DNA of 63,014 bases from a virus. Its lineage: Duplodnaviria > Heunggongvirae > Uroviricota > Caudoviricetes. How positions within the stretch are numbered: the stretch's first letter is position 1; every line of letters starts with the position of its first letter. The notes beneath the pieces were generated by a model. The model was given only the letters and a program-made list of their open reading frames with translations. It was not told where the DNA came from and ran no database searches. The DNA lies in the IMG/VR virus record IMGVR_UViG_3300045988_147415, one strand, 5' to 3'. Made by a program: the position numbers and the translations under genes. Shown here piece by piece: positions 265 to 54,319 of the stretch.

Positions 265-298
265 AAAAAAGTAAACGCCGCTACTGCGGCGTTTTTTA
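265..298. terminator. bidirectional Rho-independent terminator between glnS and the convergent methylase gene
   Basis: GC hairpin AACGCCGC-TACT-GCGGCGTT flanked by an A-run upstream and a T-run downstream. Confidence 0.55.
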
Positions 299-1201
299 CT
301 TCATTATCGCAATTATATCGTTAGCAACTACACGTGTTGACGCCTTGCAGGAAACCGACCGTCTGGCTGCCATATGATGTACTTTAAACCCGTTTCCTTC
401 ATATAGTTCACGGATGTTTGGCGCACCACTATTTGTTATCACTACCTTAGCGCCGCGCTGGTGGGCTTCCACCAATAGAGATACCAGCCGTTTCTGTTCG
501 TCGAAACGGAAGCTATTTCCTGAATAACTGGTAAACCCTTCTGTATCCGGCAGCGGTTCATACGGCGGATCGCAAAAAATCACATCGCCTTCACCAGCCG
601 CCTCGATGACGCCAGCAAAGTCACCTGATACAAAGGACGTGTTTTTGAGTACGTCATCAGCCAAAAATGCCTCCATCTCTGCATGTGGGAAGTAGGGCGC
701 TTTGTATTTGCCATACCCCACGTTGAACTCGCCATTTTGGTTGTACCGCGTTACGCCATTAAAACAGTGCCGATTAAGGTACAAAAAGGCGGCAGCATGA
801 TGTAGCTGGTCATACTTTCCTCTGTTAAATGCCTCACGCACTTCGAGGTAAGCGTCAGCGTTGTTGTAATTTTGGAAAAAACTATATGACAGCGTGACGA
901 GCGAATGTCCTTCTCGCTGCAATGTCTGATAGAAGTTAATCAGGTCACCGTTAATATCATTAAGCAGGTTGTGGCGAAATCCTGCATTTGTAAATACGGA
1001 ACCGCCACCAACGAATGGTTCTATTAACCGCTTGCCGTGTGGTAGATGCTCAAGCACTGTAGGCAACTCTGAGAATTTACCGCCTACCCATTTGAAGATC
1101 GGGCGCTCATATTCATCCGGAGTCCGAATGGTGCGCATATAGCTAATTTCAGCCATCGTATCCTGTTTTTTTATGGCTATGCTTGCTATAGATTTACTCA
1201 T
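296..1201 (-). CDS. DNA adenine methyltransferase (Dam family)
   Basis: FKWVGGK...EPFVGGGSV motif I and DPPY catalytic motif; strong overall resemblance to E. coli Dam; start set at MSKSIA with GGGGG RBS, overlapping the upstream stop. Confidence 0.85.
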   Translation of the reverse strand: MSKSIASIAIKKQDTMAEISYMRTIRTPDEYERPIFKWVGGKFSELPTVLEHLPHGKRLIEPFVGGGSVFTNAGFRHNLLNDINGDLINFYQTLQREGHSLVTLSYSFFQNYNNADAYLEVREAFNRGKYDQLHHAAAFLYLNRHCFNGVTRYNQNGEFNVGYGKYKAPYFPHAEMEAFLADDVLKNTSFVSGDFAGVIEAAGEGDVIFCDPPYEPLPDTEGFTSYSGNSFRFDEQKRLVSLLVEAHQRGAKVVITNSGAPNIRELYEGNGFKVHHMAARRSVSCKASTRVVANDIIAIMK

Positions 1202-1844
1202 AGAGCACCCCCTTATTCGCTTCGAAAACTGCCTTTGCGAATCCATGCGGAGTAGCACTTCGAAAATTAGCCCTTTCAGGTCCAGGTGGCGCGGTATGGA
1301 TTCTGTTATCTGGCTTGCCTAATGATTCGTCCATTAGGGCATCAGGCATGACAAAGCCTTGCCCGCTCCAGAGGCATGTTTTTTTGGTGTAATTGTCTTC
1401 CTTGCAATATGCAGTGAAGTGGTAAGGATGGAAGATGTGATCAGGTTTACGCCAGAATGTCGATATTTGGCTGACCGGGTTTTCAATCATGTACGGGCAA
1501 CCAATCATCTTTGCAATATCGTAACACTGCCAGACGACCTGCATCGCTTTGAACTGGAAAAACGGATCTTTGTCAGCCTTATGCGCAAACCAGCGCGCAC
1601 CGGAAACAGCAAGGTCCGTGCACGGCGGAAAACCAGCTAAAAACACAATACGTTGTAAATTATTTCGGAGAAAAGCATAAACTTCATCACTATCGATAAT
1701 CGCACTGATACGTGTCAGAACTGCGCCTGATTGCATCAGCTCATCTCTGGTCTCTGCGTGTTGTGGATCGACGATAACAGCATCTATACCATGCTCCAGC
1801 CAGGGGGCGACCATTTTCCCCGTGAAATCACAAAGACTCACCAT
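1194..1844 (-). CDS. short C5-cytosine methyltransferase-like protein
   Basis: GFPPCTDLAVSG resembles C5-MTase motif IV (PCQ) and MIENP resembles motif VI (ENV); internal ATG chosen because the longer ORF overlaps rdgC by more than 100 nt. Confidence 0.45.
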   Translation of the reverse strand: MVSLCDFTGKMVAPWLEHGIDAVIVDPQHAETRDELMQSGAVLTRISAIIDSDEVYAFLRNNLQRIVFLAGFPPCTDLAVSGARWFAHKADKDPFFQFKAMQVVWQCYDIAKMIGCPYMIENPVSQISTFWRKPDHIFHPYHFTAYCKEDNYTKKTCLWSGQGFVMPDALMDESLGKPDNRIHTAPPGPERANFRSATPHGFAKAVFEANKGVLYE

Positions 1845-6024: not shown

Positions 6025-6102
6025 AGGTCGATCTGTCAGGTATCGAAAGGAAGATTTTCTGGAGATTGTGATTTTGGATGAAGGAGGGGGAATTCATAAA
6101 AT

Positions 6103-6129
6103 GCACTTGCGCACAGTGCAACGGTGCGC
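6103..6129. promoter_or_regulatory. overlapping palindromes GCACTTGCGCACAGTGC / GCGCAC-N9-GTGCGC in the higBA promoter region (candidate HigA operator)
   Basis: Dyad symmetry immediately upstream of a TATAGT -10-like hexamer and the higB RBS. Confidence 0.3.
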
Positions 6130-6174
6130 TATAGTTATGGCATTCGGTAATCATCACGGAGGATCAAATGACTA

Positions 6175-6477
6175 ATGACCAAAAAAATTAACATAAAGGA
6201 TTTCAGGGATGCGTGGCTTGATGATTTTTTTGAATTTTCAACACCACATAGAAAGATACCTCCTGATATTCATATGACATTGTCACGGAAGTTGGACATT
6301 ATCAATGCCGCAACTACCTGTAAGGATTTAAGATCACCACCAGGTAATCGGTATGAGGAACTGTCAGGGAAGCTAAATGGCTATTCATCAGTAAGGGTGA
6401 ATAAGCAATATAGGTTAATTTTTAAGTGGGTTAACGGAAAGGCCGAGGACTTGTATCTCGACCCTCACAAATACTAA
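6175..6477 (+). CDS. higB: HigB-family toxin (plasmid maintenance system killer, RelE/ParE superfamily)
   Basis: DLRSPPGNRYEELSGKLNGYSSVRVNKQYRLIFKWVNG matches the conserved HigB core; toxin-first order with adjacent HTH antitoxin. Confidence 0.8.
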   Translation: MTKKINIKDFRDAWLDDFFEFSTPHRKIPPDIHMTLSRKLDIINAATTCKDLRSPPGNRYEELSGKLNGYSSVRVNKQYRLIFKWVNGKAEDLYLDPHKY

Positions 6478-6547
6478 AACAGATACCCGGTTACGGACCG
6501 GGTTCTGACCAGAGTCCACTTAATACGCACGCTAGTAAGGGCAAAAA

Positions 6548-6886
6548 ATGAAACAGGCAACCAGAAAACCGACGACCGTAGGTGATATCCTGCTGTACGA
6601 ATACCTGGAGCCGTTAGAGCTGAAGATCAACGAGTTAGCAGAAATACTTCATGTTCATCGTAACACCGTAAGTGCTCTTGTTAATAATAATCGTAAGCTA
6701 ACGATGGATATGGCATATCGCCTGGCAAAAGCATTCGATACTTCTGTAGATTTTTGGATTAATCTTCAGACCGCAGTAGATCTGTGGGAAGTCGAAAATG
6801 ATATGCGCGTTCAGGAAGAGTTAAGTCGTATCAATACTGCTGAAAAATTTATTTCTCAGCGGAACCTGAATAAAAAAGCAGCCTGA
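6548..6886 (+). CDS. higA: HigA-family antitoxin (XRE-type HTH)
   Basis: GDILLYEYLEPLELKINELAEILHVHRNTVSALVNNNRKLTMDMAYRLAKAFDTSVDFWINLQ is a classic HigA HTH; directly downstream of higB. Confidence 0.8.
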   Translation: MKQATRKPTTVGDILLYEYLEPLELKINELAEILHVHRNTVSALVNNNRKLTMDMAYRLAKAFDTSVDFWINLQTAVDLWEVENDMRVQEELSRINTAEKFISQRNLNKKAA

Positions 6887-6906
6887 TATAGTAAAACACA
6901 TACAAA

Positions 6907-6935
6907 AAGCCCACTTAGCAAGTGGGCTTTCCTTT
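6907..6935 (+). terminator. Rho-independent terminator after higA
   Basis: Hairpin AAGCCCACT-TAGCA-AGTGGGCTT followed by a T-rich tract. Confidence 0.5.
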
Positions 6936-6942
6936 GTAATTA

Positions 6943-7143
6943 ATGAACATTAAACCTATCCGTACAGAACAAGATTATGAGGCCGCACTGCGTGCGGTCG
7001 AACCGATGTTCGATAACGAACCGGAAATGAATACTCCGGAAGGTGATTTCTTTGAGGTTATGAGTCTTCTCATTGAGGAGTACGAGAAGAAACATTACCC
7101 AATTCAGCCACCATCACCTGTTGAATCTTTTAACTATCCATAA
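6943..7143 (+). CDS. short ORF resembling only the N-terminal (non-HTH) domain of XRE/HigA-type antitoxins; possibly truncated
   Basis: MNIKPIRTEQDYEAALRAVEPMF...EEYEKKHYPI is the usual N-terminal segment of longer antitoxins but the ORF stops before any HTH. Confidence 0.4.
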   Translation: MNIKPIRTEQDYEAALRAVEPMFDNEPEMNTPEGDFFEVMSLLIEEYEKKHYPIQPPSPVESFNYP

Positions 7144-7164
7144 TAAAAGTAATCAGGATAAGCT

Positions 7165-7893
7165 ATGATGTCAGAAAAAGTTAAAGATAATTCGTCTATA
7201 AATGAAACAGAACTAAAATCATTTTCTGAAATAATAAAAGATAAAATATTTAACAAGGTTTTTGCATATGTTGTCATTTCTTTTCTAATCCTTAACTGGA
7301 AGGATATTTTAATTATATTAAAGTCAAAGGACGACATCCTATATACATTATCTATTGTTTTTGTTGGTGGTAATGTACCGTTCTTTGATAATTGGATTGT
7401 ACCCCCGTGGGTTTGTCACGTTGTAATCCCATTTATTTATGGAGTATTTGCATCTGTATTAGCTCCTATTCTCACACTGACGATATCTAAGCTAACAAGT
7501 AAATTATACACTGAAATAAGATATTTAGATGAAGTTGCTGATTATGATAAAAGAATAGAATTGCAAAGAAAGAAAACAAAGTTAAATCAAGCAACCAATG
7601 ACGCTAAATATTCAAAACAAATCTTAGATGAAAATGAAAATAAACTTAATGACTTGGTTACGAAACAGCGAGAAATTTGTGGCGCGATAAAACTATTGCA
7701 TACTGATGTTGGCAGTATTATTGAACTATATAAAAATAAGGGGGTTAGCATTGAATCTCCGCAAGATTTATGTGATTTTATAGTCGCTATAAAAAGCACA
7801 TCATTCTATAATGATGACAAGCATTTTAATAAATTGGTGTCTGATATTTCCAGTTTGTTTGATAATACTGGAATTGATCTTTCAAAAAAATGA
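7165..7893 (+). CDS. AT-rich cargo gene: membrane protein with cytoplasmic coiled-coil domain (candidate abortive-infection/defence protein)
   Basis: Strong drop in GC over the ORF; three hydrophobic helices then a Lys/Glu/Asn-rich coiled-coil region; own terminator. Confidence 0.55.
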   Translation: MMSEKVKDNSSINETELKSFSEIIKDKIFNKVFAYVVISFLILNWKDILIILKSKDDILYTLSIVFVGGNVPFFDNWIVPPWVCHVVIPFIYGVFASVLAPILTLTISKLTSKLYTEIRYLDEVADYDKRIELQRKKTKLNQATNDAKYSKQILDENENKLNDLVTKQREICGAIKLLHTDVGSIIELYKNKGVSIESPQDLCDFIVAIKSTSFYNDDKHFNKLVSDISSLFDNTGIDLSKK

Positions 7894-13627: not shown

Positions 13628-13689
13628 AATGGCAGCCTCCTTTTGCTAATTTAAGGAGCTACCGCGTGAGGTTCCAATCTCAATGGCGG

Positions 13690-13790
13690 TAGCACTGACT
13701 GGGTTGGAACTACCGGCGCAAAAGGGAACCGGCCTGCCTTTCGGCAGCCCAGCCAGCACTACCATTGATCTCTGAGCTAAACGCTACGTA
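13690..13790 (-). ncRNA. candidate c4-like antisense regulatory RNA (tRNA-like features), immI copy 1
   Basis: Minus-strand transcript carries GUUCCAAC complementary to GAUUGGAACC sites both upstream and about 42 nt before the icd start; a UAGCUCAG...GGUAG D-arm-like segment suggests RNase P-type processing; boundaries approximate. Confidence 0.3.
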
Positions 13791-13811: not shown

Positions 13812-13835
13812 CAAAAAAAGACGCTTTCGGCGTCT
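13812..13835 (-). terminator. Rho-independent terminator upstream of the c4-like region
   Basis: Hairpin AGACGC-TTTCG-GCGTCT followed on the minus strand by UUUUUU. Confidence 0.5.
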
Positions 13836-13940
13836 GTGTCGCCTTTTGCATTATCCGGGGTTCCAATCCCGGCACCCGTTTTTCTAAGGTGCCGTAGAAA
13901 TATACCCCACGATAATGCCAGGGCGCAACAGTCAGTATTT

Positions 13941-21020: not shown

Positions 21021-21816
21021 CTATCAAGAACTGCGCGAGGCGGCGGAACAGGCAACGCAAGATGAATGGGTAGCATATATTTTGCCGGGTCATAACGGCA
21101 TTTATCCTGCGCGCACGTCTGAGGGTAGGCATTGCGGATACTTTATTGACTGGCCTGGCATTGATGGACAAAGGAATGCTGGTGCTAATGCCCGTTATAT
21201 CGCGTCTATCCCACCAAAAGTTGCGCTGGCACTCCTGGCCGAAATTAAGTGCCTGGAAGACACAAATATTGATGCCATGTGCCGAATTGCAGAACTGGAA
21301 AAACAATGCGCTGAATGGGAGCGAAAAGCATTAAGCAACTTTGAAGAGTGTGCTGCTATGGCTGAACGTATCGAAGAGTTGCAGACAAACTCTGCACCAG
21401 GTTCGTTTGGCATCATCGGTGAAAACATTCGAACACAGGATAATCGAATAACGTCAGACCCTATGTTTTGTGTGTATCAAAAGCGCGAAATCGTTGTTGA
21501 TGCTGATTATGACTATGACCGGATTGTCTGGGTTGATGAAGATGGCAATGAAGCCAATAAACGCCAAAGTCGTCGTCTCGAACTACTTCACGAAAACTTT
21601 CGAGAGCCACCAGAAAAATGGCGGCGCGTTGCTGTGAAAGATATTGATGAATTCGTGACCTGCTGTTTCACCGAGCAGGGTTGTAAAGACTACTTGGCAG
21701 CCAATGGTCACAATCTTCGCTTGCCTTTTATATATGTAAAAAGCGGTTTCAGGAACGCTGAATATATCGGCATAAGAAACTGGCTTGCTGGCATTCGCAT
21801 CAAAGGAGGTGAGTAA
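21007..21816 (+). CDS. ead/Ea22-like family protein
   Basis: N-terminal ELREAAEQATQDEW...ANARYIASIPPKVALALLAEI typical of Ea22-like prophage proteins. Confidence 0.55.
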   Translation: MIKINYQELREAAEQATQDEWVAYILPGHNGIYPARTSEGRHCGYFIDWPGIDGQRNAGANARYIASIPPKVALALLAEIKCLEDTNIDAMCRIAELEKQCAEWERKALSNFEECAAMAERIEELQTNSAPGSFGIIGENIRTQDNRITSDPMFCVYQKREIVVDADYDYDRIVWVDEDGNEANKRQSRRLELLHENFREPPEKWRRVAVKDIDEFVTCCFTEQGCKDYLAANGHNLRLPFIYVKSGFRNAEYIGIRNWLAGIRIKGGE

Positions 21817-21992
21817 TGCGTGTGGCATGTATCGGCTTGTTACCGTACCCGACTCGTTTTTGGGCTTCTGCGCTAATTGCAAAGCCACATGTCCTGATGG
21901 CTGACAACATCATCCCGGCACCAAAGCGCCGCCATACCGGTATTGCAGCGGCACGACGAGCAGCAAAGAAACGCAGGAGAGCAAAACGATGA
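21816..21992 (+). CDS. possible small basic protein (58 aa)
   Basis: AGGAGGTGA RBS; TAATG overlap with the upstream stop and ATGA overlap with the next start; below ORF-track cutoff. Confidence 0.3.
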   Translation: MRVACIGLLPYPTRFWASALIAKPHVLMADNIIPAPKRRHTGIAAARRAAKKRRRAKR

Positions 21993-22180
21993 AAAACCGT
22001 AAAGCAAAGATGCTTATTTCCCGTGTATACAGACGTTGCCATCCCAGCCAGTGGTTGAGAGTTAGCAATCGCCGTGTGGTGTTGTACTTATATTCTGGAA
22101 TTGCCAGAGAGGGAGTCCGAGATAAGCGCAGCGCGGCGCAAAACCGCTGGAAAAACCACCTGCGCACTAAAGGAGACTGA
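21989..22180 (+). CDS. hypothetical small basic protein
   Basis: Translationally coupled on both sides. Confidence 0.35.
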   Translation: MKNRKAKMLISRVYRRCHPSQWLRVSNRRVVLYLYSGIAREGVRDKRSAAQNRWKNHLRTKGD

Positions 22181-22181
22181 T

Positions 22182-22391
22182 ATGGCTATTGCCGCAAGTT
22201 ACACCATGCATCTCTACTGTGATTGTCGCCAGTGTACAAATGGTAAATATCAAACGCCAGACTTCGGTGAGTATATCGGTACGTCATGGGCTGGCTGTGC
22301 AAAAGAGGCGCGCAAGGACGGCTGGCGAATAAGCAAAGACAAAACGCGTGCTTTTGCGCCCGGGCATAAAGTTTTGAGGGTTAATAAATGA
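22182..22391 (+). CDS. small Cys-containing protein (possible zinc-binding)
   Basis: Internal ATG with AAAGGAG RBS; YCDCRQC motif. Confidence 0.45.
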   Translation: MAIAASYTMHLYCDCRQCTNGKYQTPDFGEYIGTSWAGCAKEARKDGWRISKDKTRAFAPGHKVLRVNK

Positions 22392-32120: not shown

Positions 32121-32154
32121 CTAACTTTAAATAATGCCAATTATTTAAAGTTAT
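32121..32154. other. lox-like recombination site CTAACTTTAAATA-ATGCCAAT-TATTTAAAGTTAT
   Basis: 13-bp inverted arms around an 8-bp asymmetric spacer; arms resemble loxP arms (ATAACTTCGTATA); about 150 bp upstream of the cre-like start. Confidence 0.65.
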
Positions 32155-33428: not shown

Positions 33429-34937
33429 TTATATATCCAGATCTGGCATTTCGATATCCGCCAGAACCTGATCTCGGAAAGTTGCCATTTCGGCACCAAT
33501 ATCTTCATTAGCAGGCACATAGTCCACCAGCATAGTGAAGCAGTAGGTATCCCATCGGTCAGGCGATTTGATGTTTAGCTTTTGCCGCATGTGCTCTTTG
33601 CGCATCATCGCCATTTTCCCTTCCTCATTCAGTAAAAAGGGGATTTTTGACGCTTGCTCTGCCGTTTTAGGGTCACTGTCTATCCGCATACGCCCTGACT
33701 TTATGGCATCACGCGCCATAATATTTGCGTAGGCACGCTGATTAACAAATCGCTCCCTGTCTTTGTTCGCAAACATGGGTTTTCCCCACCGAATACGTAC
33801 CGGGTTCGCACCACGACGCACCAACTGCGCACACGTATCAGAACCAAAACCATCGGCATCAACCGCGATTGTTATATTCGGGTATTTTTCCGGCGTACAT
33901 TCGTTATATATGAAGTCAGCAAAGGCCAATGGGTCCATAGTGCCAGGCATCTCCATTACCTTAAAGTTAACAACGCGCCGCTTATCCCTGTGACCAGATA
34001 CCTTGCAGATGTTGAGGACCGACTTATCTCGCCCATTACCAACGTCAGCCGTTGCCACCCATCCCCAGTTTTTCTCCAACAACACCTTGCGGCGAGCAGC
34101 GCGATCGCATTCATCACGACCAAGCAAATAGCCGTTAATTTCTCGTGGGAACTGACCAAGCACCTTGACCATGTACTCAATAGAATCGCGCCCGCCATAT
34201 TCCAGAAGCTTCTGCTTGATGAATTGTGGTGTGACGAACGGTGATTCTTCCGAGTTAAGAACAATTGCTGTCCAGATCCCTTTCGGGTTGTCTGGGGTTT
34301 TTGCTTGAGAATGGTGCGAATCGTAGAAATAACCACTTGGCCTTGTTGGCTGGGATAGCATCAACATCCGGTTATCTTCTTCAGTAAGAGCACCGGTCAT
34401 TACGCCGATCGCCTTATCAGATATACCAGATGCTTCATCCAGAATTAGAAGCAAATGTGCCGCGTGTTCACCCGCCAGCGCTTCTTCGTTGCCGAGTCGA
34501 TAACCTTTGCAGAGAACTTCCCAAATCCCCTTACGGGAGCGCTCATAAAACATGGTGTCAGAGAGGACAAAATAGGTCTGCAACCACCCATGACGCTTAA
34601 CTGCATTCGCCCAATACTGTTTAACGTATTTGAATACGCCTGTTTTTACCTGGCCTATCTTGTTAGCAACAATGATGACACGGGCATCGGGGAACAGGAT
34701 CATGAAAATCAACAGCAACATCGCGGTAAGGGACGACTTCCCCGTTCCGTGTCCGGACGTGACGGTCGTCCTACTCCCCGTTTCCTGCACGGACTGAATG
34801 ATCTGCTGCTGCTGGTGGGAGGGGAACATCCCAAAAATATCGACAACAGCCTGGGTAAAGTTGTAGCGGTATTTGATTACCATATCGCGCCAGCGTGGAT
34901 CGCTGGTGACGCATTTAATCTTGCGCCCTCCAGCCAT
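33429..34937 (-). CDS. pacB: terminase large subunit (PacB-like)
   Basis: Walker A SGHGTGKSS and Walker B LLLILDEASG; 502 aa; directly downstream of the small-subunit gene. Confidence 0.8.
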   Translation of the reverse strand: MAGGRKIKCVTSDPRWRDMVIKYRYNFTQAVVDIFGMFPSHQQQQIIQSVQETGSRTTVTSGHGTGKSSLTAMLLLIFMILFPDARVIIVANKIGQVKTGVFKYVKQYWANAVKRHGWLQTYFVLSDTMFYERSRKGIWEVLCKGYRLGNEEALAGEHAAHLLLILDEASGISDKAIGVMTGALTEEDNRMLMLSQPTRPSGYFYDSHHSQAKTPDNPKGIWTAIVLNSEESPFVTPQFIKQKLLEYGGRDSIEYMVKVLGQFPREINGYLLGRDECDRAARRKVLLEKNWGWVATADVGNGRDKSVLNICKVSGHRDKRRVVNFKVMEMPGTMDPLAFADFIYNECTPEKYPNITIAVDADGFGSDTCAQLVRRGANPVRIRWGKPMFANKDRERFVNQRAYANIMARDAIKSGRMRIDSDPKTAEQASKIPFLLNEEGKMAMMRKEHMRQKLNIKSPDRWDTYCFTMLVDYVPANEDIGAEMATFRDQVLADIEMPDLDI

Positions 34938-36301
34938 TAATCATCCTCCGGCGGTTCTATCGCGATATCATCATCTCCGGCGTCATACCCTGCATCAGAT
35001 GCATCATAATCACCGTAAATTTCAGCCGTTGCCGAAGGGTCAATATCCAGCTCTTCGTCGTTGGCCTCGAATTCTCCAGCTTTACGCTCGCCATTGCGGT
35101 CGTAATCTCCGCACCCCAATTCTTCAACAATGGTTGCCACATCCGCCCGGCGCTCTGCCAGCCATTGCGGATGGTTAGCCTGAAGCGTTGCAAACTCCCT
35201 TGCCTCTTTGTCCAGCTGTTCATCATCAACATCATTGACGTCAGAAACAGGTGGTTCGAGAAGAGTGATAGCTTTCGCCGCGCGCGCCGCGAGGATAGCC
35301 GGGACGCTGACCCCCTGGCGCTCGATGTATTCAGCAACACCGATATCATCCAGTTCCTCGCGCTCACGCATACGTATAGCGGCGGCGATAACTCTGGCTG
35401 CGCGTGCGTCAGCGCCAATGCGATATTCAATCTCTTTGCCACGCTGTTCGGCCTGTAGGCGTGCTAATTCGAGTTTTTCTCTGGCCTCAGCCTCTTTGAA
35501 TGCTTGCTGGCGAGCGCTCTGACGAAGCTTTTCATCCCCCTGTCGCAGCTTTTGTTCGGACTGATATATAGCTGCCAACCTACTGATAAAATCATTCATG
35601 TAGTAGGCCGCGTCACTGATTAGACCGAGAAGGCGCTGCCCAGGGTGCATTCCTTCTGGCTCTTTATCGCCCAAGGCGTCTATTTCCGCCTGTAGACGTT
35701 CGGCCTCCTGATCAACAATGCTTTGATACTGAAGTGCGCGCTCTTGCGCCATTTGAATTGCTAACCGCAGGTGTTCTTCTGCGCCGTTCTTCATCATATC
35801 GCGAGCCACATTCGTAGTGGGCAATGTGGCACGCTGCACAGCACCGCCAGGGATCATTGCTGAAGATCCCTCAATTTTTGGGGCGCTTTTATCTTCTTCG
35901 GGGATCATTTTCGCCATTTTTTCGCGCAATGATCTCCTGACAGATTCTTTTATCTCATTGTTATTATTGGTATTACTTTCATGATCCGAAGTTTTCTTTC
36001 TTGGCATACTTCGGAAAGAACCTGCACCCTGCGAATTGTCAATTTCTGTAAATTTTGTTTTTTCTGCACCCTCTTCCAGCTTTTTTGTTGCTCTTCCCGC
36101 CCGTTTTTTTTCAGGTGATTTGGTGCTTTTTTTTGTTGTCTTTACCTGCGACCGCACCTCATTTTTTTTCATATTGAGATGCTTTCTGGCTGTATTGAAG
36201 CTAAGGCCATGCTCCTCACAGTATTCCTTTACAGTGATCCCTTTTTCTTCACGCAACGCTATAAAGCGGGCGCGGTGCTCCTCCCAATTAACCAGACTCA
36301 T
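34937..36301 (-). CDS. pacA: terminase small subunit (PacA-like) with N-terminal HTH
   Basis: N-terminal HTH (ITVKEYCEEHGLSFNTARKHL); overlaps the pacB start; contains an internal GATC-hexamer cluster. Confidence 0.6.
   Translation of the reverse strand: MSLVNWEEHRARFIALREEKGITVKEYCEEHGLSFNTARKHLNMKKNEVRSQVKTTKKSTKSPEKKRAGRATKKLEEGAEKTKFTEIDNSQGAGSFRSMPRKKTSDHESNTNNNNEIKESVRRSLREKMAKMIPEEDKSAPKIEGSSAMIPGGAVQRATLPTTNVARDMMKNGAEEHLRLAIQMAQERALQYQSIVDQEAERLQAEIDALGDKEPEGMHPGQRLLGLISDAAYYMNDFISRLAAIYQSEQKLRQGDEKLRQSARQQAFKEAEAREKLELARLQAEQRGKEIEYRIGADARAARVIAAAIRMREREELDDIGVAEYIERQGVSVPAILAARAAKAITLLEPPVSDVNDVDDEQLDKEAREFATLQANHPQWLAERRADVATIVEELGCGDYDRNGERKAGEFEANDEELDIDPSATAEIYGDYDASDAGYDAGDDDIAIEPPEDD
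35850..35990. other. candidate pac packaging site: cluster of GATC hexamers inside pacA
   Basis: Five GATC sites within about 135 bp (near 35852, 35865, 35903, 35931, 35983) plus TGATCA near 35710, against about 0.5 expected by chance. Confidence 0.45.
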
Positions 36302-36690
36302 AAAGCAACACCACGCTTTTTAACGGCGGCATTCCACAGCTTATTCGCCATGTCCACCAGCTCTCGTTGCTCTTTTCGCGCCTGTTCGACTGATTTCCTG
36401 CTACAGTTTTTAACCAGTAAGCTACCGTATTCAGGCGTGCGCCCGCGCACCTTGAACTGATATCCGTTCAGACCATGTAGCCAGTATTTTCGTGGATACA
36501 CACGATCATCCAGCTCACAGATTGCCCTGCTTGAACGAACAAAATGACGAATGATGTTAGTTACACTTACTCGTGAAACATGGAGATGAGGGTATTTTTC
36601 TTTGGCGAGAGTGGTAATTTCAGTGACTGTCAGATAGCAGTCAGCCCTGATCATGATATCCGCAATTTCTGCGCTGCTGATTTGTTCCAT
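36298..36690 (-). CDS. hypothetical protein; candidate late-promoter activator (Lpa-like) by position
   Basis: 130-aa basic protein immediately upstream of and coupled to pacA; operator motif in its promoter. Confidence 0.3.
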   Translation of the reverse strand: MEQISSAEIADIMIRADCYLTVTEITTLAKEKYPHLHVSRVSVTNIIRHFVRSSRAICELDDRVYPRKYWLHGLNGYQFKVRGRTPEYGSLLVKNCSRKSVEQARKEQRELVDMANKLWNAAVKKRGVAL

Positions 36691-36767
36691 TAATCCCCCG
36701 GGCAGGAAATGACCGAGGGGATGATAATGAGAATGTTAAAACTGTATAGACTGGTAAAAAGATGATT

Positions 36768-36790
36768 ATATTAGAAAATTAATATTAAAT
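36768..36790 (-). promoter_or_regulatory. operator-like motif (weaker variant) upstream of the Lpa-like gene
   Basis: ATTTAATATTAATTTTCTAATA on the minus strand. Confidence 0.3.
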
Positions 36791-36798
36791 ACCTAACG

Positions 36799-37191
36799 CT
36801 ACCAGCGAGACAAACGAACAACATGTTTCACTTTTGCGATCCACTTTCCGCGATAACTATTGATTACGGCCTGTGCCAGCTTCAAATTGGCTTCAAAATC
36901 AGCCTTACTACCATCAGACTCCACCAGCATTCCTCCATCTATTTCTGGTAAACATAGATAATCCTGCTCAACCTGCAGCGGCATTGATGGCTCTCTGAAT
37001 GGCGTTACTTGCTCTGCTTTCCAGCGAAATCTAACCCTCATCCCCCTGGTGGTCATTACTAGATAGCCTGTTATAGTGCTTTTATGGCCCACATCAGTAC
37101 GCGTGGCATTGCATGACACGATCTTACAGTTAGCGATAGACCACTCCATATTGGTGGCCTGTTGAGTGCTTAATTTGGTAGTCCCGTACAT
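36799..37191 (-). CDS. hypothetical protein
   Basis: 130-aa ORF coupled to the upstream gene. Confidence 0.4.
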   Translation of the reverse strand: MYGTTKLSTQQATNMEWSIANCKIVSCNATRTDVGHKSTITGYLVMTTRGMRVRFRWKAEQVTPFREPSMPLQVEQDYLCLPEIDGGMLVESDGSKADFEANLKLAQAVINSYRGKWIAKVKHVVRLSRW

Positions 37192-38220: not shown

Positions 38221-38296
38221 TGGTGGCCCCTACCGGATTTGAACCGGTGACCGTGCGATTATGAGTCGCCAGCTCTAACCACTGAGCTAAAGGGCC
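38221..38296 (-). tRNA. tRNA-Ile (anticodon CAU, ileX-like; Met cannot be excluded)
   Basis: 76-nt cloverleaf GGCCCTTTAGCTCAGTGGTTAGAGC...GGCGACTCATAATCGC...GGTTCAAATCC...GGGGCCACCA, closely resembling E. coli ileX. Confidence 0.8.
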
Positions 38297-38433
38297 AGAT
38301 TACTGTTAATTCCGCTTACGCTTTTTGCCAGAACCGCGTAAGGCTTTTGCCGCTTGCTCGGCCCCATATGCAACCACCAGCAAAAATAAAAATGTCCAAC
38401 CAGGGTTCTTATCGGCAAACGCCCAAAAATTCA

Positions 38434-38667
38434 TCACTTACAGCCACCTTGCATTTCCTTGGATAATTCATTGATTTTAGTGCTCAATAAGTAATCAAAG
38501 TAAAGATAAAACACAAAAGTAACGATAGTGCTTAAAGTGTCTGAAATTGCGTATTTCAGCTCAGGAAGCATGACAAAGCAGACAAATAGCGGAAGAAATA
38601 ACTGCACTATGCACAGGCTCTTCTTCCACAACCATCTATATCTGAAGTCTGACAACAAAAACTCCAT
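38434..38667 (-). CDS. possible small membrane protein inside the tRNA cluster
   Basis: AT-rich ORF with two hydrophobic helices; start ambiguous and RBS weak. Confidence 0.3.
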   Translation of the reverse strand: MEFLLSDFRYRWLWKKSLCIVQLFLPLFVCFVMLPELKYAISDTLSTIVTFVFYLYFDYLLSTKINELSKEMQGGCK

Positions 38668-38799
38668 TGCTTGAAACTTTATTAGGTTGCGGTGCCTGGT
38701 GCCTCCAGGTGACGTTAACCAGTTAACAATTAACGCCGGGATGTTTGACTTAACCACTAAGGAGGATTGTTTTAACTGTTCCGCGTGCGCTTAGCCGCA

Positions 38800-38920
38800 T
38801 TCACCGCAATGGTAAGAGCACTTGGCTGGCTGGGCGGCGATGACGCCTGTACGCATTTGGTGATCCGGTTCTGCTTCCGGCATTCGCTTAATTAGCCAAA
38901 TACTCTTAACGTTGCACTGG
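38800..38920. repeat. hairpin trailer element, copy 1 (immediately 3' of tRNA-Ser)
   Basis: Conserved TCACCGCAATGGTAAGAGCACTTGG paired with CCAAATACTCTTAACGTTGCACTGG about 70 nt away. Confidence 0.4.
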
Positions 38921-39004
38921 CGGAGAGTAATGGAATCGAACCATCATCGCTTGCGCAATGGGACGGTTTTCAAGACCGCTTGAGCACCATGCTCCCTACT
39001 CTCC
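38918..39004 (-). tRNA. tRNA-Ser (anticodon UGA), long variable arm
   Basis: 87 nt; acceptor GGAGAGT/ACTCTCC, anticodon loop CTTGAAA, T-loop TTCGATT, CCA encoded. Confidence 0.75.
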
Positions 39005-39129
39005 AGTGATTGTGGCGACCGGTGCTGATCTCCGGCTTGCGGTTATTTCAGACTCTCACGGGCGTTTAATTGCCCCGCCGAACAGCTCTTTTCCGCAATA
39101 GCTGCAATGTCTTTCGCGCATCAGCCTGC

Positions 39130-39240
39130 GCATTCACCACAATGTTGAGAACACTGGTTGTCACGCTGCAACGCAACATTTATTCGTAGATTGGGATATG
39201 ACCCCGTTACGCCGGTGTTCTCAACGTTGTAGTGCCGGTT
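39130..39240. repeat. hairpin trailer element, copy 2, with a duplicated fragment of the tRNA-Thr 3' end
   Basis: CACAATGTTGAGAACAC ... GTGTTCTCAACGTTGTAG 17-bp inverted repeat followed by GTGCCGGTTACGG. Confidence 0.4.
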
Positions 39241-39366
39241 ACGGTTCCGGCCAGGCCTCTTCCTCAACGGGGTGTTCTCCATACGGACTACCGTTTATTG
39301 GTCGTTCCTGCGGTTTATGTTGTGAAGCCAGATGCTTATCTTCTGGTTGCTTCTAGGAGCTGCACT

Positions 39367-39452
39367 TCATCACAACGGTAAGAGCATTTATGGCTCGCAT
39401 CGCGGGAAAAAGCCCACGGTAGAGAGTCGAACTCTACAAATGCTCTTACCTG
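39367..39452. repeat. hairpin trailer element, copy 3 (immediately 3' of tRNA-Thr)
   Basis: GGTAAGAGCATTT ... AAATGCTCTTACC 13-bp inverted repeat enclosing two internal hairpins; no valid cloverleaf on either strand. Confidence 0.4.
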
Positions 39453-39458
39453 TTGTGT

Positions 39459-39534
39459 TGGTGCCGGTTAACGGGATCGAACCGCTGACCATTCGCTTAC
39501 AAAGCGACTGCTCTACCAACTGAGCTAAACCGGC
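39459..39534 (-). tRNA. tRNA-Thr (anticodon UGU)
   Basis: 76 nt; acceptor GCCGGTT/AACCGGC, D-arm GCTCAGTTGGTAGAGC, anticodon loop TTTGTAA, T-loop TTCGATC, CCA encoded. Confidence 0.8.
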
Positions 39535-39538
39535 AATT

Positions 39539-39625
39539 TGGTGGGGAGTGATGGAGTCGAACCACCCGAGTCGCAATGACAGTAGATTTACAGTCTACCC
39601 CGCTACCCCTACGGACTAACTCCCC
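39539..39625 (-). tRNA. tRNA-Tyr (anticodon GUA), long variable arm
   Basis: 87 nt; anticodon stem-loop GTAGACTGTAAATCTAC as in E. coli tRNA-Tyr; acceptor GGGGAGT/ACTCCCC; CCA encoded. Confidence 0.7.
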
Positions 39626-39630
39626 TAAAT

Positions 39631-39707
39631 TGGCGATGGTGGGTGGATTCGAACCACCGACCGACAGCTTAGAAGGCTGCTGCTCTATCCTACTGAGCTA
39701 CACCATC
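39631..39707 (-). tRNA. tRNA-Arg (anticodon UCU, reads rare AGA)
   Basis: 77 nt; acceptor GATGGTG/CACCATC, anticodon loop CTTCTAA, T-loop TTCGAAT, CCA encoded. Confidence 0.8.
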
Positions 39708-52773: not shown

Positions 52774-52829
52774 AGTTACGGCCTCACTAACAGGTTTAAC
52801 AACCTGCTACCCGCTGTCAAACAGGTGGC

Positions 52830-52920
52830 AGGACGTGACAGGGTTGACAGACTGGCGTTAGTGAAACCAGCAGGCCGAAGCCTCCCCATCACGCCCCACC
52901 ATAATTCGGGCGTAACGCGG
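52830..52920 (-). ncRNA. candidate c4-like antisense regulatory RNA, immI copy 2
   Basis: CUGUCAAC element complementary to UUGACAGC sites located about 41 nt before the icd start and again about 170 nt upstream; same geometry as copy 1 with a different sequence; boundaries approximate. Confidence 0.3.
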
Positions 52921-53116
52921 TTTACGGACACAAAAATACCGCAATATCGGAAATCTGCGGTTGTCCGCACTAACATTCAGGCTGTCAAACCTGGTCGCAG
53001 AATTTGCTACGACGGCATGAATATAAGCCTGAAAACATGGAAGATCAACTAAAAATTTCAGCAATGGATGACTTCAGTCGATGATGCAGATCATACATTC
53101 CGATTTAGAAACAGCA

Positions 53117-54236: not shown

Positions 54237-54319
54237 GCTTTTTTGGCAGTCGCTACCGGAGCAGTGACCGCGATCCTACTCGATCCCATCCACCAGGATC
54301 AACAGTGTATATAAATACA

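Follow-up and report, generated by a model that had tools for sequence, protein, structure and literature searches.

A conserved cluster of Dam sites within pacA as the likely recognition region of a D6-type pac site

The pac sites at which P22 (gene 3), SPP1 and Sf6 start a processive headful series lie within or beside the gene for the small terminase subunit. To our knowledge these sites are not made of Dam sites, and we know of no methylation control acting on them. Phage P1 has, as far as we know, the only packaging site that is both built of Dam sites and switched by methylation, and this P1 pac underlies the phagemid, PAC-cloning and transduction tools derived from P1. Here, we describe a cluster of five GATC sites inside the packaging gene pacA of a D6-like plasmid prophage, contained in a 63,014-nucleotide stretch of viral DNA (IMG/VR record IMGVR_UViG_3300045988_147415; hereafter the window). 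Because the five GATCs are unchanged at the DNA level while the surrounding sequence drifts, we consider this cluster (35850-35988) to be the likely recognition part of a D6-type pac site.

P1 pac extends over 161 bp inside pacA and consists of seven TGATCA/G hexamers with Dam sites, plus integration host factor (IHF) and cleavage sites (PMC10028697). The site is associated with the work of Sternberg and Coulby and of Skorupski et al. In the annotated P1 record (NC_005856), both the IHF site (pacA nt 256-268) and the cleavage points (nt 276-285) fall in the interval that separates the two arms of hexamers. According to the model cited in PMC10028697, hemimethylated pac is bound and further methylation permits cutting. 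Synonymous disruption of the pac hexamers lowers titre and packaging about 9-fold (PMC10028697), and P1 requires Dam methylation at pac, dmt being essential in dam-negative hosts (PMC12707154).

Between 34900 and 36350 the window shares 99.7% of its nucleotides with Escherichia phage D6 (NC_050154, MF356679, AY753669), a plasmid prophage related to P1. Within pacA only four positions differ (35021, 35189, 35201 and 35399), all distant from the GATC cluster, where the window and D6 sequences are the same. The D6 records also annotate c1 and dre, and no pac site is annotated in them. An initial annotation of the window had proposed a P1-like, Dam-regulated pac site here, with GATCs at 35852, 35865, 35903, 35931 and 35983 and a sixth at about 35711, inside the 5' third of a PacA-like gene. 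The five positions are exact and correspond to pacA nt 447, 434, 396, 368 and 316; the sites span nt 316-450 of 1365, in the 5' third as stated. The sixth GATC is present as an outlier, although its true start is one base away, at 35710 (nt 589). The gene, the cluster and its sites are listed below in window coordinates, with pacA positions in brackets; L numbers denote aligned pacA homologues.

34937..36301, minus strand: pacA, small (recognition) subunit of the pacase, 454 aa, 1365 nt (D6 annotation, PHROG 1711 and alignment with P1 PacA)
35850..35988 (nt 314-452), no strand: conserved five-GATC cluster, proposed D6-type pac recognition region; five GATCs invariant in the D6 clade
35981..35987 (GATC 35983; nt 316), plus strand: site 1, ATGATCC, Asp-His codons GAT-CAT; CGGATCA invariant in the D6 clade
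35929..35935 (GATC 35931; nt 368), plus strand: site 2, ATGATCT (ATGATCC in L005-L008); GATC kept
35901..35908 (GATC 35903; nt 396), minus strand: site 3, ATGATCCC; AAATGATCCC invariant in six lineages
35863..35869 (GATC 35865; nt 434), plus strand: site 4, AAGATCC, with a degenerate flank (ATGATCC in L005, ATGATCT in L006 and L007)
35850..35857 (GATC 35852; nt 447), minus strand: site 5, ATGATCCC, a direct repeat of site 3; AATGATCCC invariant in six lineages

Read in gene orientation, the hexamers of sites 1-5 are GGATCA, AGATCA, TGATCC, GGATCT and TGATCC, and the repeat lies reverse, reverse, forward, reverse and forward relative to pacA. By type, three sites are TGATCC, one is TGATCT and one GGATCT. 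None of the five is the TGATCA/G hexamer that the initial annotation had expected from P1, TGATCA being found only at the outlier 35710. The clade consensus in T-first orientation is ATGATCC(C/G); plasmid pEC361_3 (L005) carries five perfect TGATCC copies, and in D6 two copies have drifted flanks. Pairs of the same orientation (sites 1-2 and sites 3-5) are spaced 51-52 bp apart, about five helical turns, with sites 3 and 5 forming an exact direct repeat (D4, two copies of GGGATCATT, spacing 51 bp). As in P1 pac, every repeat has a GATC core.

We compared pacA homologues drawn from plasmids, GTDB genomes and IMG/VR. In the codon alignment, the D6 clade comprises sequences from E. coli, Shigella and E. 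fergusonii (93, 74, 73 and 68% PacA identity), and six-lineage comparisons consist of this clade plus the Enterobacter sequence L008 (56% amino acid identity). The frameshifted pacA genes L009 (Salmonella pSa1423-160k) and L013 (Acinetobacter) were excluded from the tests; L080, a Pantoea-type pseudogene, was also unusable. GATCs at nt 316, 368, 396, 434 and 447 are present in every D6-clade sequence aligned. The remaining pacA GATCs are not common to the clade, except the one at nt 63 (36236), which lies within the conserved helix-turn-helix (HTH) domain (Gly-Ile-Thr) and was set aside because protein constraint of that domain explains its conservation. The outlier at 35710, which the initial annotation had counted with the cluster, was likewise rejected as part of the element, since it is lost in the relatives L005-L007.

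The linker in which the cluster lies (nt 150-470) retains about 60% nucleotide identity between D6 and its 68-74% relatives, with 11% of 4-mers invariant. The longest invariant runs in it are CGGATCA, GATCATT, AAATGATCCC and AATGATCCC, and AAATGATCCC is unchanged in 6/6 aligned lineages, L008 included. Spacing of the sites stays constant although the linker has diverged by about 40% between lineages. For all five GATCs to be invariant across the D6 clade in this linker, P is about 1e-5. Among the distinct D6-clade 5' sequences in IMG/VR, 19 of 21 retain all five sites.

The pattern of substitutions points to the DNA as the object of this conservation. The five sites fall in three different frames, GAT-CAT (Asp-His), xGA-TCA and ATG-ATC-CC, and at sites 2 and 4 the GATC is kept while the preceding codon switches between Arg (AGA) and Gly (GGA). 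With L008 added, 15.5% of the codons for conserved residues are codon-invariant. The two codon-invariant columns among 13 conserved Ile columns are the ATC codons within ATGATCC of sites 3 and 5, the single one among five conserved Ser columns is the TCA of site 2, and the Asp codon GAT of site 1 (nt 316) is frozen. Wobble bases directly flanking the motifs are variable (Pro 400, Pro 451, His 319 and Ser 436). Because synonymous positions are frozen beside free wobble bases, in three frames, and GATC is kept through amino acid replacements, we conclude from the alignments that purifying selection on the five GATCs acts on the DNA and not on the protein. A synonymous-codon shuffle of pacA nt 300-460 agrees with this, as it yields 2.07 expected GATCs against the five observed (P = 0.012); in the remainder of pacA, two are observed against 4.1 expected. 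Applied to the proven P1 pac, the same test gives only P = 0.04 and is therefore conservative.

PacA of the window belongs to the P1 PacA family. It matches PHROG 1711 'terminase' (E = 2e-183), D6 PacA aligns over its full length with P1 PacA (21% identity, E = 2e-9, BLASTP), and the gene order lpa-pacA-pacB-c1 is common to D6 and P1. A tblastn search of the phage collection returned no match other than D6 itself. In every sampled PacA-family gene, GATC clusters follow the N-terminal domain, in the linker: at nt 195, 202, 214 and 229, then 325, 337, 348 and 376 in P1 (4+3+1), as 6-7 TGATCA at 12-bp spacing plus 2 in the Pantoea type, and as 5-6 + 3 in Serratia, 2+2 in Citrobacter, 3+1 in Leclercia and 3+5 in Enterobacter L008/L051. 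The design recurs in every sampled PacA lineage and is therefore not a P1 peculiarity. As a separate observation, Pantoea-type pacA genes (L012, L016-L019, L061-L079) hold at nt 154-214 six TGATCA with an exact 12-bp period, encoding a (Ser/Gly/Asn/His)-Asp-His peptide repeat; this is the most regular Dam-site array among the PacA genes seen.

D6 and P1 share further traits: the element occupies the linker that follows the N-terminal HTH domain, in the 5' region of pacA; it is made of short repeats each with a Dam GATC; and it is accompanied by adjacent pacA and pacB genes, a phage-encoded Dam-type methylase and a Cre/lox-type site about 4 kb downstream. The embedding of a recognition site in the gene of the protein that reads it is shared with P22, SPP1 and Sf6 as well, whereas the small terminases of those phages are generally known to be unrelated in sequence to PacA. 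Judged by protein alignment, the D6 cluster lies on and just past the columns of the P1 right arm, so that in position the two are homologous. Place in pacA, a GATC per repeat, DNA-level constraint and the presence of pacase and dam genes thus all agree with a P1-type pac. Neither the TGATCA/G hexamer nor the two-armed 4+3 layout is found, and the D6 element is therefore probably a distinct variant of this type. The core of the initial annotation, a P1-like pac made of Dam sites within pacA, thus has the best support of the explanations considered, from the DNA-level selection, the right-arm alignment, the family-wide clusters and the dam gene. The repeat and the 4+3 layout depart from P1.

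How the variant may have arisen is suggested by P1/D6-like plasmid prophages of the Enterobacter type (p60214CZ_1, L008; IMG/VR L051/L053). Like D6, they have a TGATCC-type repeat and the PacA motif NTARKHL, and their sites 2, 3 and 5 align exactly with those of D6, AAATGATCCC being invariant. Unlike D6, they lack site 1 and have a left arm of three sites at nt 157-181 with 12-bp spacing, being two-armed (3+5) like P1. Left-arm columns hold GATCs in P1 and in the Pantoea, Serratia and Enterobacter relatives. Since the Enterobacter type combines the TGATCC repeat with a retained left arm, it appears that in the D6 clade this arm disappeared and site 1 was added.

The repeat co-varies with the protein. 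The start of PacA helix 3, the putative recognition helix, reads NTARKHL in the two TGATCC lineages and NTARRE/YL or NTVRRQ in all TGATCA lineages. This co-variation is a lead to specificity residues and not a proof, because a single evolutionary event lies behind it. An AlphaFold single-sequence model of PacA has a three-helix HTH-like domain at residues ~6-58 (pLDDT, the predicted local distance difference test, 74-90) with NTARKHL at the start of helix 3 of the three-helix bundle, a linker at ~60-170 of mostly low confidence that includes the cluster codons 106-151, and a long helical C-terminal part. The predicted template-modelling score (pTM) of the model is low (0.24), so only the domain layout was taken from it.

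One part of the proposed mechanism concerns methylation, for which the element's own enzyme is relevant.

296..1258, minus strand: Dam-family N6-adenine DNA methyltransferase (D6 orf63; PF02086, E = 2e-56; TIGR00571)

The initial annotation had recognised a Dam methylase here at 296..1201. The family assignment is borne out by PF02086 and TIGR00571, but the reading frame is 296..1258 on the minus strand. The protein scores 249 bits against TIGR00571 'dam' (cut-off 115) and 240 bits against the E. coli Dam equivalog, below the cut-off of 441. Its best relative in the PDB is E. coli Dam (E = 2e-58), followed by DpnII M1, both GATC enzymes. Beside it, an open reading frame at 1194-1973 on the minus strand overlaps the 5' end of the long methylase form (296..1258). 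Its position is that of D6 orf64, annotated 'DNA methyltransferase', and Pfam gives no match for it at E <= 0.001. Two methylases that differ in specificity may be encoded by the element.

By analogy with P1, we propose that the PacA/PacB pacase binds the ATGATCC heptamers, in both orientations, through the N-terminal HTH of PacA and cuts near the repeats. The cut might fall slightly upstream of site 1, at pacA nt 270-300 (about 36000-36035), near the conserved island described below; since the alignment is poor there, the position is a guess. Headful packaging would then run pacA -> pacB -> c1 -> rox, towards decreasing window coordinates, and rox would therefore lie within the terminal redundancy of the first headful. 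In P1, packaging is reported in the Sternberg papers to proceed from pac towards lox. Binding or cutting is probably gated through the GATC cores, methylated by host Dam and by the Dam-family enzyme of the element, because there is a GATC in every repeat and the element has its own Dam-family methylase; methylation dependence would nonetheless be the less certain part, pac recognition the more certain. We tentatively go one step further and regard a one-armed pac as possible, with five asymmetric ATGATCC copies in mixed orientation, all on the packaged side of the cut, without a left arm or an IHF site, and with the switch from TGATCA to TGATCC matched by that from NTARR-E/Y-L to NTARKHL. If this one-armed picture is true, the D6 and P1 pacases would be orthogonal, neither packaging the other's DNA or phagemids.

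Several observations weigh against a P1-type pac at this place. The P1 repeat is TGATCA/G and that of D6 is ATGATCC, asymmetric and in both orientations. P1 has two arms (4+3 hexamers around a ~90-bp spacer with the cleavage site), D6 a single five-site cluster over 135 bp, and in the D6 clade no GATC stands in the alignment columns of the P1 left arm (HEX4). In P1, removal of hexamers from either arm reportedly cuts cleavage some 10-fold per hexamer, as Sternberg and Coulby are said to have found in 1987. An IHF site separates the P1 arms, and at the D6 cluster no IHF consensus was found: WATCAANNNNTTR with at most one mismatch has no match in 35800-36120, a consensus scan that leaves IHF or HU binding possible. 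Two IMG/VR D6-clade contigs, L028 and L049, each miss one GATC (at nt 368 and 396); there may be some redundancy among the five sites, or packaging may be poor in these prophages. Sites 3 and 5 both encode Met-Ile-Pro, and some protein-level constraint is therefore possible. The GATC specificity of the element's methylase is a prediction from family membership only. Finally, the initial annotation had relied on a GATC density above that of the rest of the element. The cluster is indeed the sole spot with at least five GATCs in 140 bp in the D6 genome (91,159 bp scanned), but taken by itself its density is not significant (scan P about 0.25-0.33), as scattering 225 GATCs at random over 63 kb puts five of them within 135 bp in about 25% of trials, and in about 33% for the complete D6 genome (325 GATCs in 91,159 bp). 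In favour of the place, on the other hand, the D6 genome offers no alternative site of the P1 type: nowhere in it do at least three P1-type hexamers cluster within 165 bp.

Of the alternatives to a methylation-gated pac, the nearest is a pacase recognition element without a role for methylation, in which PacA would merely read a sequence with GATC at its core and the methylase would have other uses, such as anti-restriction or replication control. In its favour, the conserved unit exceeds GATC (AAATGATCCC being invariant), and the co-variation of flank type with the PacA helix-3 motif fits sequence-specific reading better than methyl reading. Against this, GATC is the most strictly kept part, the flanks of D6 sites 2 and 4 having drifted to TGATCT and GGATCT, and GATC cores occur in all sampled PacA-family lineages whatever the flank. 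Cleavage of P1 pac is, moreover, methylation-dependent (PMC10028697, PMC12707154). We consider this alternative unlikely.

It is improbable that the cluster is instead a Dam/SeqA-responsive element unrelated to packaging, for instance one that controls a promoter within the gene or on its antisense strand, or a place of SeqA sequestration with an effect on pacA/pacB expression or on replication. GATCs spaced 13-52 bp apart are generally known to suit SeqA and Dam-sensitive regulators, and a separate GATC triplet at 54272-54297, upstream of a repL-like gene, means that the element may use Dam sites elsewhere too. Against this explanation, no promoter-like site lies on either strand of 35700-36100, the only one in 35500-36900 being at 36748-36721, and pacA has no match to an Rfam family. 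A terminator scan at the cluster found only weak stems of 5-6 bp on the antisense strand. The position homologous to a proven P1 pac arm also speaks for packaging.

Very doubtful, too, is the explanation that conservation of the cluster is a by-product of protein constraint (for instance a K-M-I-P repeat or a D-H motif in the PacA linker) or that the cluster is a non-functional relic of a P1-type site. Met-Ile-Pro is encoded by both site 3 and site 5, about two GATCs are expected in the region from the protein sequence, and the left arm is gone in the D6 clade, so decay does happen. What counts against it is the substitution pattern set out above: frozen synonymous positions within the motifs next to variable wobble bases, one DNA motif in three frames and on both strands, GATCs that outlast amino acid replacements, and a spacing unchanged despite ~40% linker divergence. 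A chance cluster without function is scarcely credible, for although at least five GATCs within 135 bp turn up somewhere in 25-33% of random trials, their invariance across diverged lineages (P about 1e-5) and the recurrence of the trait in every sampled PacA-family lineage do not fit it.

Returning to the likely pac site, we also considered accessory elements around the cluster. A search of pacA nt 100-315 for a non-GATC replacement of the left arm found no conserved repeated motif apart from one island:

36036..36054 (pacA nt 248-266), no strand: conserved DNA island AATTTACA-N5-TGACAA, 50-70 bp upstream of site 1

Neither AATTTACA nor TGACAA varies within the D6 clade, TGACAA is unchanged in L008 too, and the island codons for Thr (ACA) and Asp (GAC) are identical in 6/6 sequences. 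Speculatively, the island may be an accessory or cleavage-region element of pac. Its reverse complement in L004-L008, TTGTCAG, is the P1 cleavage-point heptamer in opposite orientation; a 7-mer has a chance of about 4% in 300 bp, and the match was not used. Other candidates were discarded. An exact IHF consensus, TATCAAAGCATTG, at 35716-35728 on the minus strand stands beside the sixth GATC (TGATCA); it and the sixth GATC are probably there by chance, because neither is conserved in the D6-clade relatives. The resemblance of D6 TAACAATGAGATA (nt 339-351) to the P1 IHF site AAACAAAGAGTTA is weak and was seen by eye, with only ATAACA invariant, and was left unused. The repeat CTGCACCCT at 36022 and 36064 is not conserved in L004 and was rejected.

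The genes and the recombination site around pacA are arranged as follows.

36298..36690, minus strand: lpa (D6 annotation)
33429..34937, minus strand: pacB, large terminase subunit with ATPase/nuclease function (D6 annotation; PHROG 2; weak Pfam Terminase_6N match)
32122..32153, no strand: rox, the Dre recombination site (exact match to rox annotated in AY753669)

PacB matches PHROG 2 'terminase large subunit' with E = 2e-40. In the direction of pacA, rox lies 3.7 kb downstream of the cluster, a layout like that of P1, where pac and lox are 4.0 kb apart. The lpa stop overlaps the pacA start (ATGA) at 36298-36301, where P1 has an 85-bp spacer with LPpac. With this overlap, no separate late promoter can fit between the two genes, unlike in P1, where one lies there.

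In the searchable literature on D6-like phages with pac or GATC, we found no description of the D6 cluster; an earlier description is possible. That D6 should have a P1-like pac is what a specialist would expect, and what is modestly new is the change of repeat, the presence of one arm only and the co-variation with helix 3. D6 would provide a second natural version of such a site, with another repeat and a simpler layout, and could show which of the P1 pac features (two arms, IHF, the exact hexamer) are indispensable. The helix-3 change points to PacA residues that may read the repeat. For the D6-like plasmid prophages that are widespread in E. coli, Salmonella and Shigella, the cluster suggests where packaging might start, and the D6 pac/pacase pair may serve as a P1-orthogonal tool for phagemid delivery. 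The general picture of headful packaging is unaffected.

Elsewhere in the window, the triplet at 54272-54297 consists of three GATCs within 30 bp (CGATCC, CGATCC and GGATCA), outside any open reading frame of at least 80 codons. Estimated by coordinate offset (D6 repL 21331-22293), it lies just upstream of the repL-like lytic replication gene, and it could be a Dam-sensitive promoter or origin element. Rfam identifies two C4 antisense RNA genes, at 13682-13769 and 52821-52906, both on the minus strand; an isrK-like RNA (13814-13892) adjoins the first and a c4 a1/b1 target element (52974-53026) the second. These RNAs point to two modules of immI-like antirepressor control, in line with D6, for which two icd-ant pairs are annotated. 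In the D6 RefSeq record, only three tRNAs are given, on the plus strand, and tRNA-Met is missing. With ARAGORN, we found four tRNAs on the minus strand of D6 (L081) at 6084-7850 (Met, Ser, Thr and Asn) and five on the minus strand of the window at 38221-39707 (Met, Ser-tga, Thr, Tyr and Arg-tct). The tRNA cargo therefore differs, with Tyr and Arg in the window and Asn in D6.

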